Program-made: the position numbers and the translations under genes
From: a virus
Length of the DNA: 31,339 nucleotides
Virus record (IMG/VR): IMGVR_UViG_3300045988_041366
Span: 1-31,339 of that record
Reading direction: 5' to 3' (one strand)
In this document: positions 1,954-28,837 of the stretch, piece after piece
Numbering within the stretch: the stretch's first letter is position 1
Layout: every line of letters starts with the position of its first letter
The notes under the pieces: model-generated
Told to the model about the DNA's origin: nothing
Seen by the model: the letters and a program-made list of their open reading frames with translations, nothing else
Databases searched by the model: none

Positions 1954-2448
1954 ATGACGAAAGGATTTTTAACTATCGCCGCAGTGCTGGCACTTGTCCT
2001 GCTTTTCGCGGCGGCAGCGGTTCCTGAAGAAATCACGATACCGGAGACAGAACCGACTACCGCGCCTGAACCGACGGTATCGGCGCAGATACCCACAGCA
2101 CGCTACAGGTTGACCGCAGAGGAGCGAGAGCTTATATGCGAGGTAGTTATGGCTGAATCGGGAACAGAGCCGTTTGACGGCAAAATGGCGGTCTCACAGT
2201 GTATTTTGAATGCTTGCGAGCAAACAGGGAAAAGACCCGCCGAGATTGTGACCGAGTATGGTTACACCGAACGCCGGGTGGAACCGAACGCAGAGACGAG
2301 GGAAGCCGTCGCCGCAGTCTTTGATGCCGGCGAGACGGTGACAGACGCAGAGATTCTTTATTTTTATGCGCCTGAGCTTGTGAGCAGCGAGTGGCACGAA
2401 TCGCAGACCTATGTCTGCACGATAGGCGGTCACAGATTTTTCGCCTAA
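1954..2448 (+). CDS. Secreted or membrane-anchored SleB/CwlJ-type cell wall hydrolase (Hydrolase_2-like)
   Basis: RBS AAAGGAG. The N-terminal signal/TM is MTKGFLTIAAVLALVLLFAAAAVP. The core LTAEERELICEVVMAESGTEPFDGKMAVSQCILNA...GGHRFF resembles the SleB-type catalytic domain. Confidence 0.65.
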   Translation: MTKGFLTIAAVLALVLLFAAAAVPEEITIPETEPTTAPEPTVSAQIPTARYRLTAEERELICEVVMAESGTEPFDGKMAVSQCILNACEQTGKRPAEIVTEYGYTERRVEPNAETREAVAAVFDAGETVTDAEILYFYAPELVSSEWHESQTYVCTIGGHRFFA

Positions 2449-2460
2449 CTTACATAGAAA

Positions 2461-2490
2461 AGAGGCAGAGCTTGCGCCCTGCCTCTTTGT
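2461..2490 (+). terminator. Intrinsic terminator (repeated element, copy 1)
   Basis: AGAGGCAG (2461-2468) pairs with CTGCCTCT (2479-2486), then TTGTCATTT. The core ggcagagcttgcgccctgcct recurs at 4333-4353. Confidence 0.7.
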
Positions 2491-2509
2491 CATTTCACGA
2501 AAAAGCCCG

Positions 2510-2578
2510 AAAAAACTTTAAAAAAGTTTAAAAAATTTTAAAAAAACTATTGACAAGCGCGGCTATATGGTATATAAT
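2510..2578 (+). promoter_or_regulatory. Phased A-tract UP region plus perfect consensus promoter (cassette copy B)
   Basis: A6-7 tracts start at exactly 2510, 2520, 2530 and 2540. TTGACA lies at 2550-2555, a 17-nt spacer follows, and TATAAT lies at 2573-2578. Confidence 0.75.
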
Positions 2579-2610
2579 ATAGACAATGAAAGGACAGAAA
2601 GGTGATTAAA

Positions 2611-2865
2611 ATGACAACAATCAATGCAAAAATCAGAAATCAGGCAAACAAGATAATATCAAAGTACAACGGATACAGAAAGCCGCAGGACATCGCGAAG
2701 ATGTATACGGAGCTGTCAGAGATAGGCGTTACAATCCCGATGTTCGCAGGAAACATGACCGCTTTTGAATACAACGGCGAGGCGGTTGAAAATTCGAGAT
2801 TTGTTTATCAGGCTTACGAAATGCCCGAAAGCGACAACGTGGAATACAATATGTATATATCGTGA
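2611..2865 (+). CDS. Hypothetical early protein (84 aa)
   Basis: ORF 2602..2865. The ATG at 2611 is better spaced from AAAGGTGA than the GTG at 2602. No recognisable motifs. Confidence 0.55.
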   Translation: MTTINAKIRNQANKIISKYNGYRKPQDIAKMYTELSEIGVTIPMFAGNMTAFEYNGEAVENSRFVYQAYEMPESDNVEYNMYIS

Positions 2866-2875
2866 GGAGGTTAAA

Positions 2876-3307
2876 ATGTTAGTAACGGTTGTAGAGTATA
2901 AAGGCGAATATGTCTGCGTCGGACTTAGACCGCTGGAAAGCGGGTATCAGGCGTATTACCTTTATACTTTTAAAGGCAAAAGATATCAGACAAAAGAAGA
3001 AGCAATCGCCGCAATCAATCAGTTCAATCCGCATTTTGTTTATTTTGACACAAAAGATATCACGGGCTGGGAAGATTGGATCGCTGAGGACAACTACGAC
3101 GCAACGAAACAAATGACGCTTTTCGCGACTTATGACGGCGGCGCATTGTATCGGGTTAAATCGGATACGGGCGACTATCTCAAAAGCGTCAAAAAAGGCA
3201 GAAACAAAGCTGAAGTTTTTGGCGGCGTCGATTGGTTTTTGCTACAAAGAAAACGCTTTCCGGAGCTATACGGAGAAAAAAATTATCATATAGTGGAGGA
3301 TGTTTAA
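2876..3307 (+). CDS. Hypothetical early protein (143 aa)
   Basis: ATG at 2876 lies 5 nt after GAGGAGG (2864-2870). The longer track ORF from 2765 overlaps the previous gene and lacks an RBS. Confidence 0.6.
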   Translation: MLVTVVEYKGEYVCVGLRPLESGYQAYYLYTFKGKRYQTKEEAIAAINQFNPHFVYFDTKDITGWEDWIAEDNYDATKQMTLFATYDGGALYRVKSDTGDYLKSVKKGRNKAEVFGGVDWFLLQRKRFPELYGEKNYHIVEDV

Positions 3308-19595: not shown

Positions 19596-20597
19596 ATGAA
19601 TATCTGCATATCGATAGGTCACGGAAAATCAGCAAAAGGCGGCTATGACAGCGGCGCCCTTGGCGGGAACTATCAGGAGTTTAAAATAGCGCGCGAGATA
19701 GGCAAGTACATAGGCGAAGTGTTCAAGGGCTACGATTGCACCGCCGATGTCATCAACTATGACGCGACGCTTTATCTCACCGAAAGAATAGCCCACGTCA
19801 ACAAGCACGGCTATGACCTTGCAATGGAGATACACCTCAACGCTTCGGGCGGCACAGGCTCGGAGGTCTACTATAAGCACAAGAGCGCGACGGGCAAGAA
19901 GCTCGCGGCGGCAATCAGCAAGAACATAGCTAACACCTTCGGCATCCGCGACAGGGGCGCAAGGGTCAAAATCAACCCGTCAAACGGCACGGACTATTTT
20001 GGCTTTGTCCGCTCCTGCAAGTGCGAGAGCCTGCTGATAGAGACCGTGTTTATTGACACAGCGAGCGACCGCAAGCACGTCGAGACCGCCGCAGGACAGA
20101 AGCAGTGCGCGGAGGCTATCGTTAAGGCTGTCGCTGATTTTTACGGCATAAAGAAAAAGTCGAGCACATCGACTAACAAGCCTACGACGGATAAGCCGAG
20201 TGGCGGCAATCTTACAACAGTCAAGGCTGGCGACACTGTCAAGATAACCGGAAGCAAGTACGCGACAGGGCAGAAGATACCGATGTGGGTCAAGCTTAAA
20301 AAGCACACGGTCAAATCAGTCAGCGGAAACAAGGCACTGCTCAAGGAGATAAACAGCTGGGTCTATACCGCCGACCTTACTGTTTTGCAGTCGGAGATAA
20401 CCGTCGGCAGCAAGGTTACGATAAAGAGCGGTGCGGTCTACGGCGGACTTTCGTCAACGAGAGGCAAGGCAGTTCCGAAAGAGCAGCTTGCACCGAAGAA
20501 GCACACGGTCAGCAAAATAGAAACTCACAACGGCGTAAAAGAAGCACTGCTTTCCGATATCGTGTCGTGGGTTGCTATAAAATATTTGGAAATGTGA
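19596..20597 (+). CDS. Endolysin: N-acetylmuramoyl-L-alanine amidase (Amidase_3) plus two SH3-like wall-binding repeats
   Basis: ISIGHG...EIHLNASGGTGSEVYY...ESLLIETVFID is the catalytic part. The two C-terminal repeats are VKAGDTVKITGSKY... and ITVGSKVTIKSGAVY.... Confidence 0.85.
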   Translation: MNICISIGHGKSAKGGYDSGALGGNYQEFKIAREIGKYIGEVFKGYDCTADVINYDATLYLTERIAHVNKHGYDLAMEIHLNASGGTGSEVYYKHKSATGKKLAAAISKNIANTFGIRDRGARVKINPSNGTDYFGFVRSCKCESLLIETVFIDTASDRKHVETAAGQKQCAEAIVKAVADFYGIKKKSSTSTNKPTTDKPSGGNLTTVKAGDTVKITGSKYATGQKIPMWVKLKKHTVKSVSGNKALLKEINSWVYTADLTVLQSEITVGSKVTIKSGAVYGGLSSTRGKAVPKEQLAPKKHTVSKIETHNGVKEALLSDIVSWVAIKYLEM

Positions 20598-26101: not shown

Positions 26102-26370
26102 ATTTAAGAAGTTTTAGGCTGTTTGGCTGGGGCTATGTGAAGGACTTTTGCATAGCCCTTTATAAAAAGAGAACGGAAGATGAAATATATAGGGTCTATG
26201 TGACGGACTGTCTACGAATGATAAGCGAGAACACAGCAAATCAAGTCGGCGGGAAATTCATACAGAAACGCTATTATGATATATTGAATCCTCCGCCCGT
26301 TGAAACAAGAACAGCCGAAGAAATCACTCAAGAAATCGCAGATAACTGCGGAATAGAGGTGATTAAGTGA
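26047..26370 (+). CDS. gpT-like -1 frame extension (made as a G-T fusion 25754..26047 + 26047..26370)
   Basis: The track ORF 26137..26370 has only a GTG start and no RBS, and its frame stays open upstream into the gpG-like gene. Confidence 0.55.
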   Translation, partial: YLCRAVPCDIFKECLCRINLRSFRLFGWGYVKDFCIALYKKRTEDEIYRVYVTDCLRMISENTANQVGGKFIQKRYYDILNPPPVETRTAEEITQEIADNCGIEVIK

Positions 26371-26889
26371 ATCTATTTGAAGTATTTATAAAAATTGGAG
26401 CGGACACTTCAGAATCCGACAAGGCAATAAAGGATACTGGCGCAAAAACAAAAGAGTTAGGCGAAAAGGTTAAAAGCGGTTTAAAAACCGTTGCCAAAGT
26501 ATCCGCCGCTACAATGGGCACAATGGCGGCAGGCGTGGCAAAGGTAGTTAAGGACGCAACAGCCGCTTATGCCGACTATGAGCAGCTTGTCGGAGGCGTT
26601 GAAACTCTTTTCAAGCAATCGTCTGATACCGTCCTGCAATATGCAGATAACGCATATAAGACCGCGGGACTTTCCGCCAATCAGTATATGGAAACGGTGA
26701 CGAGCTTCTCGGCTTCGCTTTTGCAGTCATTGGACGGCGATACAGCTAAAGCGGCAAAACAAGCCGACAAAGCTATTACTGATATGGCGGATAACGCGAA
26801 CAAGATGGGTACGGATATTCAGTCAATCCAGTATGCCTATCAAGGATTTGCAAAGCAGAACTTCACGATAAACTTAATGTCCGCCGCGT
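26367..26889 (+). CDS. Tape measure protein, exon 1
   Basis: The GTG start overlaps the previous stop, with RBS AGAGGTGA. The exon ends in the conserved ...IQYAYQGFAKQNFT... block, then reaches a stop created at the proposed splice site. Confidence 0.75.
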
Positions 26890-27404
26890 AAGCGATTGCG
26901 CGGTCGAGCGTGCGTGAACCTGTCAAGGGTGTGGGAGCAATCCCGCTAACGAGGAAACCTAAGTCAAATGATATGGCAATCTCGTGCTAAGCCTCTTTGA
27001 GGAAAGTGTAACGACTATCGGTTCGTCACCGAGTACCTCCGCTATTGACACGCGGGTGGGAAGCGCGCACCAACTCTATGAGTTGAAGAAATAGTCTGAT
27101 TCTACGGGAAACCGTGGAGCAATCGGTTAGATAACCTTAAACTGGGTAGACAAAAAAATATGCCTTTAGCGGCATAACACCATTGCTCAGTATAAACCTT
27201 GTGAAAACGGTGAAACTCTGACCGAGTAATGTCGAAGAAAACACCGTGGCAAGCCTTGTAATCAAGGAAGCTGTGACGGCTATCCCGAAAGGGAGTACGC
27301 TCAAGCGAGTGGAAGCGCAAGGCTCTGCGAAAGCAGATGAAGAGATAGCCTGAACTGTATGGAAACATACAGCAGCCGAAAGGCGGTCACAGAGTAGCGA
27401 CCTG
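26890..27404 (+). ncRNA. Group I self-splicing intron (IA2, T4 td-like core), ORF-less. The 3' boundary is uncertain (G27404 keeps the frame; the td-like end is G27418).
   Basis: P1: CCGCGU (26884-26889) pairs with GCGCGG (26898-26903) with a U.G at the junction. P4: CGAGG (26950-26954) pairs with UCUCG (26980-26984). P7: GACUAU (27013-27018) pairs with AUAGUC (27091-27096). P8: CAACUC-uau-GAGUUG (27071-27085). Several GAAA-capped hairpins lie downstream. Confidence 0.8.
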
Positions 27405-28837
27405 TGGCGAACATAATGTATGGTGGCACAAAAGAAGAAATGCAACGCCTTCTGTCCGATGCTGAAAAGCTAACGGGCAAGAAGTTTGACATTTCAAGCT
27501 ATTCTGACATTGTCGAAGCAATACACGCTGTTCAGACTGAAATGGGCATTACAGGAACTACCGCAAAAGAAGCGGAAAAGACCATACAAGGCTCACTCAG
27601 TTCTGCAAAATCAGCGTGGCAAAATCTGTTAGTCGGCATTGCAGACGATAATCAAGACTTCGGCAAACTGGTTGATAACTTCGTGGAATCGGTTGCAACG
27701 GCGGCGGGCAATATTCTGCCCCGCGTGGAGCAGTCTTTGACTGGCGTTGTGCAACTCGTTGACAAGCTTGCACCCGTGCTTATTGAAAAGATACCTGATG
27801 TTGTCAACACGGTTCTTCCCGGACTGCTTGATGCAGCGGCAAATCTTGTGAGCAGCGTTATAGATGCGCTTCCTGCGTTGATAAGCGGACTCCTCCCGAC
27901 GCTGTTATCTGCGTTGTCCGGCATCGCGTCAAAGCTAATGGAGGCGGCAACTCAGGCGGTTTTGGCACTTGCTCAAACCTTGTCGGACCCCGCAAGCCTT
28001 AACGCAATGATTGAATCCGCGCTTAACTTGGTGCTTGCGCTTGTACAAGGGTTAATGGACGCTATACCTCAGTTAATTGCCGCAGTTCCGCAGCTTGTAG
28101 GAGCTATCACGGCAACGATAATCACGGAGCTTCCTAACATCATGGCGGCAGCCGTTGAGATAATGGTTGCGTTAATCCACGGACTCATGGAAGCGTTACC
28201 CGAACTGATGGCGTATGTGCCTAATCTTATTATAGCGATTACAAACGGACTGTTAAACAACCTTGGTACACTGATAAGCGGCGGCGTTCAGCTCCTGCTG
28301 GCTATTGCACAGGGTATGATTCAGGCGATTCCCGATATGGTTGCAATGATACCACGAATTATCGCGTCAATCGTTGACACTTTCCGCTCCTACAACTGGA
28401 GCAGCATAGGAAAAAACATCGTAGCCGGAATGAAACAGGGTGTTGCAAATGCCTGGAAAAATTTCAGAGAATGGTTTAAAAACCTCTTCGGAGACCTCAC
28501 AAACATCGCTAAAAAGATACTGGGCATTGCTTCACCGTCAAAGGTGTTCAAAAAAATCGGTCAGTTCACGACCGAAGGACTGGCAATCGGTATCGAGCAG
28601 GGCGGCAAAGACGCATTTTCTGCAATAAAGGATGTGTCGCAGGGTGTTATCGACAATTACGGCGCGTCCGTTTCGTCGGGATTTGGAGTTTCAGTCGGGG
28701 CGTCAAAGGGCGTTTCTCTAACTCTTAATATCGACACATTCAACAATTACACGCAGGAAGATATAAAGAGCCTTGCAGAAAGGCTGTCAGAAATGCTCGC
28801 AAATGCGGCAGAGAGAAAGGCGGGTGCTTATGCTTAA
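27405..28837 (+). CDS. Tape measure protein, exon 2
   Basis: It resumes the conserved block ...YGGTKEEMQRLLSDAEKLTGKKFDISSYSDIVEAIHAVQTEMGITGTTAKEA, followed by a long helical Ala/Leu-rich region. There is no RBS and no ATG at its 5' end. Confidence 0.75.

Follow-up and report, generated by a model that had tools for sequence, protein, structure and literature searches.

A viral tape measure gene very probably split by two tandem group I introns and a 22-nucleotide micro-exon

The interrupted tape measure gene

The window, that is the whole stretch of 31,339 nucleotides (nt) analysed here, comprises positions 1 to 31,339 of the IMG/VR virus record IMGVR_UViG_3300045988_041366. It carries a late gene module of siphovirus type in the order TerL, portal, head morphogenesis, major head, major tail, two small open reading frames (ORFs), tape measure protein (TMP) and Dit. 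The TMP gene, our subject, appears in the ORF list as two pieces, 26367-26891 (174 amino acids, aa) and 27404-28837 (477 aa). A preliminary description of this DNA had taken them for halves of one gene, had found no credible ORF in the 0.5 kb between them and had proposed that a group I ribozyme sequence splits the gene and that splicing is required to restore it; on all these points we concur. The analysis presented below makes it highly probable that the gene is interrupted not once but by two tandem, independent, ORF-less group I introns of subgroup IA type, intron 1 (I1) at insertion site B and intron 2 (I2) at site C, which flank a 22-nt micro-exon. The spliced protein matches tape-measure PHROGs (best phrog_6900, E = 5e-78, residues 15-212, a range covering both junctions; further TMP PHROGs too), and its homologues in cultured phages, found by tblastn, are annotated as tail length tape measure protein. 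A megablast of the TMP gene against annotated phages gave no match. The parts of the gene are the following.

26367..26869, plus strand: TMP exon 1, codons 1-167 plus the AU of the 168-169 junction codon; 3' end ...CAG AAC UUC ACG AU; gap-free against the intron-less allele L001 to 26869
26870..27125, plus strand: intron 1 (I1, site B), 256 nt, group I, without ORF; RF00028 match and covariation
27126..27147, plus strand: micro-exon, 22 nt, GUUAGAUAACCUUAAACUGGGU; equals 22 nt of intron-less alleles
27148..27418, plus strand: intron 2 (I2, site C), 271 nt, group I, without ORF; RF00028 match and covariation
27419..28837, plus strand: TMP exon 3, begins YGGTKEEMQRLL and runs to the stop codon; aligns with L001 from 27419/27425
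26794|26795, plus strand: site A, an empty third insertion site, GAU|AAC

The junctions were set with the DNA of L001, and full-length relatives were found by a protein search with the conceptually spliced product. The alignment of L001 with the window runs to 26869 and resumes at 27419-27425, with exactly 28 nt between, 22 of which correspond to 27126-27147; the exon flanks of the two alleles are about 8% different. This alignment fixes the end of exon 1 at U26869, the two introns and the micro-exon at the coordinates listed above, and the start of exon 3 at 27419. Both introns close with a terminal omega G (G27125 and G27418), and so does every listed extracted site-B and site-C homologue. 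The preliminary description had already given G27418 as a 3' terminus, and it is a genuine intron end, but one that belongs to the downstream intron. Its 5' splice site at 26889 is displaced to 26869 by the intron-less DNA, and the stop codon TAA at 26889-91, which it saw as formed at the splice junction, sits 20 nt inside I1.

Removal of both introns in silico reproduces the arrangement of the intron-less alleles, in frame, and yields 647 aa. The predicted doubly spliced RNA reads ...ACGAU-GUUAGAUAACCUUAAACUGGGU-UAUGGUGG..., with the junction string ACTTCACGATGTTAGATAACCTTAAACTGGGTTATGGTGGCACA. The micro-exon completes AU|G (Met), and its remaining 21 nt, 27127-27147 (TTA GAT AAC CTT AAA CTG GGT), code for LDNLKLG, the very peptide that the preliminary description placed between QNYT and YGGTK in related proteins. 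All other predicted products are short: 174 aa for unspliced RNA or for removal of I2 only, 184 aa for removal of I1 only, and 185 aa if the micro-exon is skipped and exon 1 is joined to exon 3. Database relatives of the spliced protein fall into three classes. The first comprises full-length proteins of 647-652 aa with 88-96% identity, reading ...QNFTMLDNLKLGYGGTKEEM..., which are the intron-less homologues. The second consists of exon-3-only ORFs (461-510 aa), and the third of proteins of 501-503 aa. Among the closest 120 protein clusters about 90 are such exon-3 fragments (P0019-P0106), four further clusters are the downstream part of genes interrupted at site A, and only 19 are full length. 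We conclude that interrupted alleles predominate in this lineage and that their annotation is systematically wrong.

The micro-exon itself carries the clearest mark of translation. Between two introns in other phages, 13 of 14 distinct 22-mers code for M-LDNLKLG, the single deviant being probably a parsing error at L264. All variation falls on third codon positions or, in Leu codons, on the first position where the change is synonymous, and the window differs from L001 at 7 of the 22 positions, synonymously in every case. This purifying selection is possible only with precise removal of both introns, because only then is the segment translated. The last Gly codon is almost always GGU where site C is occupied and GGC, GGG, GGA or GGU where it is empty, so that GGU supplies the splice-site U. 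Every allele occupied at site B opens the 22-nt segment with GTTAGAyAAC, and close relatives without a site-B intron have GCTCGACAAC; every allele occupied at site C reads CTGGGT|TATGGTGG, and empty alleles read CTTGGT|TACGCCGG, CTAGGC| or CTCGGC|. This tracking of intron presence by the exon flanks could reflect co-conversion during homing, selection on the guide pairings, or a combination of the two.

Folds and guides of the two introns

The covariance model RF00028 of Rfam, whose gathering score is 50, matches the region as the preliminary description had led us to expect, with 53.6 bits at 26839-27118 (E = 4e-11 for the whole window). This match belongs to I1 and stops 300 nt before the 3' end proposed earlier. 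A more permissive scan placed a second match at 27138-27372, with 41.2 bits (E = 4.8e-9 in a 701-nt search and 2.2e-7 for the whole window); this is I2, and it is here that the notion of a single 529-nt intron gives way to two introns and a micro-exon. Of the site-C homologues of I2, the copy in L005 reaches 57.9 bits and that in L006 49.9 bits. When rechecked in the sequence, the motifs quoted earlier were in place, at most 1 nt off: CCGCGU 26884-89 with GCGCGG 26898-903, ACGAGG...GUGCUAA 26949-26990, CAACUC-UAU-GAGUUG 27071-85, UAACGACUAUC 27009-19 with AAUAGUCUG 27090-98, and GAACAUAAUG 27409-18. The helices read from them as P4-P6, P7 and P8 were correctly assigned, for the upstream intron. 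The hairpin 26884-26903, in contrast, had been called P1; it is real and covaries, but it is P2 of I1 and lies 14 nt 3' of the true 5' splice site. The elements of the two folds, all on the plus strand and each part of a group I fold, are as follows.

I1, guides and P2 (coordinates verified, as for all I1 elements below): P10 guide 26873-78; P1 3' strand 26879-81; P2 26883-26904
I1, core: P3 26910-16 / 27064-70; P4-P6 26949-27007; P7 27013-18 / 27091-96; P8 27071-85
I1, periphery: P3.1 26919-29; P3.2 26931-46; P7.1 27019-31; P7.2 27038-56; P9 27102-17
I2, 5' elements: optional L1 hairpin 27160-75; P10 guide 27178-83; P1 guide 27185-91
I2, core: P3 27197-203 / 27316-22; P4-P6 27207-71; P7 27278-83 / 27345-50; P8 27324-37
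I2, periphery: P7.1 27284-93; P7.2 27298-307; P9 27355-72; P9.1 27375-84; P9.2 27386-408

For I1, covariation was assessed in 15 distinct ORF-less family members, homologues that were gathered in part by their P7/P7.1 sequence pattern. Standard pairs fill 89.7% of the cells of the fold versus 35-44% in slid controls, and 28 pairs are altered on both sides versus 14.7 ± 2.0 in shuffles (0 of 500 as high). Compensatory changes occur in P2, P3, P4, P6a, P8 and P9 and in the second hairpin between P3 and P4. P3, for instance, appears as GUGCGUG/CGCGCAC, GUGAGUG/CGCUCAC or GUAUGUG/UGCAUAC, and P2 as CCGCG/CGCGG, CUGCAU/AUGCAG or UUAAUU/AAUUAA. P1 pairs GAU of exon 1 with GUC 26879-81 and adds A26870-U26878, with the wobble U26869-G26879 at the splice site. 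Directly 5' of this guide, the P10 guide CUUAAU (26873-78; family consensus UCUAAU) pairs with micro-exon bases 1-6, GUUAGA; in the family it is 92% paired, with one-sided changes only. Three other pairings were considered and rejected: GCGUGAA 26911-17 as a guide overlaps the covarying P3, GUCGAG 26903-08 as a guide is unconserved (the family has GUGAG or GUAAG instead), and for an alternative P3 using the invariant GGUGUG the prospective partner varies without compensation, as judged by eye on the alignment. The I1 family also has two hairpins between the P3 5' strand and P4 (26919-29 and 26931-46), neither of which occurs in I2. The first, a short one, has a UACCA loop that most members conserve, and the second is variable in length and covaries. 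Peripheral elements are uncommon in the P3-P4 interval, although 'P3.1' does figure among the listed optional pairings of group I introns.

For I2 the set consisted of 16 distinct ORF-less site-C introns in TMP genes of different viral contigs, inserted at the same codon position. Here standard pairs occupy 90.4% of cells versus 31-43% in six shifted registers, with 42 pairs altered on both sides versus 24.1 ± 2.8 in shuffles (0 of 500 as high), and compensatory changes are found in P3, P4, P5, P6, P7, P9, P9.1 and P9.2. The guide pairings covary as well. P1 joins GCUCAGU (27185-91) to the last 7 nt of the micro-exon in 7 bp, including the U27147-G27185 wobble, and is 99% paired in the 16 sequences with three compensatory positions; exon and guide change together as ACUGGGU/GCUCAGU, ACUCGGU/GCCGAGU, ACUUGGU/GCCAAGU and AUUGGGU/GCUCAAU. 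The P10 guide CACCAU (27178-83), directly 5' of the P1 guide, pairs with bases 2-7 of exon 3, AUGGUG, and where the exon has AUGGCG the guide becomes CGCCAU. A hairpin inside the P1 loop (27160-75) is optional and is missing, for example, in L242 and L202.

The P7.1/P7.2 pairings between P7 and the P3 3' strand are extra elements typical of subgroup IA in the Michel and Westhof classification. Both window introns have this pair, its covariation being limited or blurred by alignment gaps. The T4 td intron, to which the region had been likened, is of type IA2 and bears the I-TevI GIY-YIG ORF in P6. In our searches the nearest annotated relatives of I1 are introns of TMP genes. Those of the 3' half of I2 are introns of phage DNA polymerase genes, and this half resembles such introns in many cultured phages. 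The ORFs of related introns are HNH, not GIY-YIG. The two window introns are also unlike each other, BLAST of I1 against I2 having given no match. Nor are their guides interchangeable: against the end of exon 1 the I2 P1 guide makes 3 of 7 pairs, and against the first bases of exon 3 the I1 P10 guide makes 3 of 6.

Intron occupancy among relatives

The three insertion sites are confined to 97 nt of coding sequence, with 75 nt between A and B and 22 nt between B and C. Among the window and its close relatives, the following states of occupancy were found.

No intron: L001
Site A only: L002-4
Site B only: L243
Site C only: L168
Sites B and C: the window, L005, L006, L167, L169
Sites A, B and C: L165, L170

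A heuristic count over 262 TMP loci gave 159 empty, 69 with B, 19 with B and C, six with A, four with C, three with A, B and C, and two with A and B; this count is biased by the way in which loci were fetched, 158 of 160 loci being empty in two TMP-protein-based searches. The sites are occupied independently, given that none, A, B, C, B+C, A+B and A+B+C are all found. The B+C tandem recurs in distant TMPs (L191, L193, L202, L224 and L242) and in Streptococcus phage Javan271. Such natural near-isogenic alleles, which carry from zero to three introns and differ in whether each intron has its endonuclease gene, offer a convenient system for studying homing and co-conversion, the cycle of intron gain and loss, and two ribozymes that share a 22-nt exon.

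A degenerate P7/P7.1 pattern of I1 hits 102 viral contigs, and nearly all of these loci are in TMP homologues (protein identity 30-95%) with a common break at residue 168|169. We therefore regard I1 as a member of a widespread, site-specific family of TMP introns. Eleven species-level genomes contain the exact I1 core, and almost all of these are metagenome-assembled genomes of gut Clostridia. The P7/P7.1 core of I2 and site-A type, GTRACGRCTATYCCGAAAGGRAGTA, was seen in more than 119 viral contigs (L274-L390), mostly outside TMP genes, with two copies each in L386 and L389.

At each site long forms bearing an HNH gene coexist with short forms devoid of an ORF, which look like clean, precise deletions of the ORF. 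The shortest forms of all are those of the window. Site A in L002-4, L165 and L170 holds a group I intron of about 883 nt with a NUMOD4/HNH_3 ORF (2106-2988 in L002), whose P1 appears to pair exon GUCGGAU with GUCCGAU. Site-B introns have the ORF in the P8 loop. Those of site C have it in the P6 loop, behind a TTGACA-N17-TATAAT sequence and a ribosome-binding site within the intron; L168 (about 2171-3003) and L167 are examples. Two unrelated HNH families, phrog_2081 and phrog_59, are found at site C. Further intron stretches containing HNH genes are L169 2195-3003 and L006 2889-3689, and in L006 the stop codon of the endonuclease ORF overlaps the P7 3' strand. Separately, the TMP matches of L043, L044, L047, L095 and L093 extend over 2.5-2.8 kb for about 530 residues, roughly 0.8-1.2 kb over-long. 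These loci could contain ORF-bearing introns that split the core, or mere insertions; RF00028 gave no match at E <= 0.01 in L043, L044 and L093.

A model of double splicing, its rivals and its precedents

We propose a model in which each ribozyme would recognize its own splice sites by its own guide sequence, and I1 and I2 would each fold and splice alone by the standard two-step, guanosine-initiated pathway. In the micro-exon, bases 1-6 take part in P10 of I1 and bases 16-22 in P1 of I2. Because the two introns use opposite ends of the micro-exon, 9 nt apart, they would act independently and in either order. Double self-splicing would produce an mRNA of exon 1, micro-exon and exon 3 and from it a 647-aa TMP reading ...QNFT-M-LDNLKLG-YGGTK..., and any other outcome would leave truncations of 174-185 aa. 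Both introns may be reduced descendants of mobile introns with HNH homing endonuclease genes, and these ancestors would have targeted the most conserved motif of the TMP family. Actual splicing, its efficiency and order, and past homing are what we infer.

Several observations weigh against this model. Neither window intron contains an ORF and no relative of these HNH proteins is encoded anywhere in the window, and the mobility of the window copies is consequently unsupported. The RF00028 score of I2 lies below the gathering score, and P7 and P7.1 of I1 are invariant by construction in its covariation set. P10 of I1 is imperfect in the window copy, where 5 of 6 pairs form and one position is mismatched. 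P1 of I1 has only 3-4 bp and is the same in 15 of 15 family sequences, and covariation, owing to this invariance, neither supports nor contradicts it. The short P1 is the weakest element of the I1 fold; P10, P2 stacking or a protein cofactor might help it to define the 5' splice site. The residual doubt concerns splicing itself, which is predicted from the DNA. One could accordingly picture the introns as decayed, non-splicing remnants, with the TMP gene a pseudogene of a defective phage or the tail built from two polypeptides of 174 aa and 477 aa. The loss of both endonuclease ORFs, the low score of I2 and the short P1 of I1 would all suit such decay, and gene callers do predict two ORFs. We nevertheless consider it very improbable. 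All core helices are intact and are kept by compensatory change, and the guides co-vary with synonymous exon changes. The micro-exon, untranslatable without splicing, shows only synonymous variation across TMPs that are 40-96% identical, and the interrupted alleles dominate the lineage (about 90 of the 120 top protein clusters). In addition, the putative GTG start of the 477-aa ORF falls inside P9.2 of I2, where no ribosome-binding site was noted.

A single td-like intron spanning 26890-27418, with CCGCGU/GCGCGG as P1 and a 5' splice site after U26889, has practically no chance of being correct. It draws on a hairpin with a terminal U-G pair that does exist, on the one RF00028 match above threshold and on GAACAUAAUG, a genuine intron terminus. 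The join 26889|27419, however, is out of frame (its length is 1 modulo 3, with a stop after about 20 codons) and would remove MLDNLKLG, which is invariant in homologues, and insert INLMSAA. Intron-less DNA aligns only to 26869, a second complete ribozyme core occupies the 3' half, and in the I1 family, where exon homology sets the 5' splice site, the hairpin covaries as P2. The reading frame, the intron-less alleles and the alleles with the upstream intron alone (L243) or the downstream intron alone (L168) together refute it. A different question is whether, besides full splicing, an exon-skipped product is made, namely a frameshifted 185-aa N-terminal TMP fragment that would have some function or be a splicing error. 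Twort orf142 and Coxiella 23S rRNA provide precedents, and a 24-nt exon is skipped when Tetrahymena introns are engineered in tandem (PMC10136302). The window introns, on the other hand, are dissimilar and have guides that cannot replace one another, distinct splice-site recognition elements favour inclusion (Ueda et al.), and skipping destroys the reading frame; we think it unlikely. Exon inclusion should indeed be strongly favoured under the model of two independent introns, because dissimilar introns with different guides are the condition found by Ueda et al. 2023 to favour it. The closeness of sites B and C could still permit some exon skipping, and thereby modulate the amount of full-length TMP.

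How do these introns compare with known systems? The preliminary description knew of no intron in a tape measure gene, but group I introns in TMP genes of Bacillus cereus-group prophages were published in 2008: the lambdaBa01-like prophages harbour TMP-IVS1, TMP-IVS2 and TMP-IVS3 (Tourasse & Kolsto 2008, PMC2504315). By that account there are, as here, three sites in the TMP gene with patchy presence among related prophages; the introns are of type IA1/IA2, some are without a complete homing endonuclease gene, their guides are adapted to their sites and conserved segments are targeted (PMC2504315). Unlike the protein studied here, the B. cereus TMP exceeds 1200 aa, and the description of the introns that we draw on speaks of no micro-exon (PMC2504315). 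The exact I1 core pattern had no match in Bacillus genomes. Introns are also known in capsid and tail genes of Cluster J mycobacteriophages. For the layout around the micro-exon, the closest parallel is Twort orf142, where introns I2 and I3 flank a 23-nt exon and exon skipping was reported (PMC10136302, summarizing Landthaler & Shub 1999). According to this summary, tandem subgroup-IA introns interrupt a phage late gene, as in the window, and the short exon (23 nt there, 22 nt here) has to act for one ribozyme as its 3' exon and for the following one as its 5' exon. The Twort introns are described as highly similar, whereas those of the window are dissimilar with non-interchangeable guides and reside in a TMP gene; skipping was observed there, and splicing is predicted here. 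In Coxiella burnetii 23S rRNA, two group I introns of different types likewise flank a short exon, of 34 nt (PMC10136302); as the host is a bacterial rRNA gene and not a phage protein-coding gene, that case is free of a reading-frame constraint.

Two annotated phages offer further parallels. Javan271 (MK448723; L392 1571-2485 and beyond), a prophage with a public annotated record, is built like the window, with introns at sites B and C on either side of the micro-exon GTTAGATAACTTAAAACTGGGT and the guide GCUCAGU in the site-C intron. Lactococcus phage 38502 (KX160204) has a site-B intron with 77% identity to I1 between two 'tapemeasure protein' coding sequences (CDSs). In both, unlike in the window, the site-B intron carries an HNH ORF. 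Their records annotate the split CDSs and the HNH gene but not the intron boundaries or the micro-exon; that of Javan271 lists two 'minor tail protein' CDSs and bears the remark '# Phage intron'. Gene callers divide the TMP into two 'genes', the 22-nt micro-exon is invisible to them, and the arrangement goes unrecognized in public records such as this one. TMP-gene introns and the micro-exon layout both have precedents, and this is not a new kind of element. Among gut phages the double-intron TMP layout has proved both widespread and variable. A limited literature search gave no description of a 22-nt micro-exon combined with a TMP gene, of three sites clustered in a single conserved motif, of how broad this intron family is in uncultivated gut phages or of the near-complete set of occupancy states.

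The clustering invites a further, rather doubtful speculation. The motif ...ITDMADN / FAKQNYTM / LDNLKLGY... may be contested by co-infecting gut phages, with three HNH introns homing there and ORF-less copies persisting because they split the recognition sites. If this were so, the split sites would shield the genome from the endonucleases of related phages, a form of interference competition or immunity and not mere parasitism. The natural alleles described above are also a convenient system for asking whether intron endonucleases mediate competition between gut phages.

Elsewhere in the window, a 333-aa ORF at 19596-20597 (plus strand) matches endolysin PHROGs (phrog_435, E = 1e-48); it lies between the portal and head-morphogenesis genes, an unusual location for a lysin.

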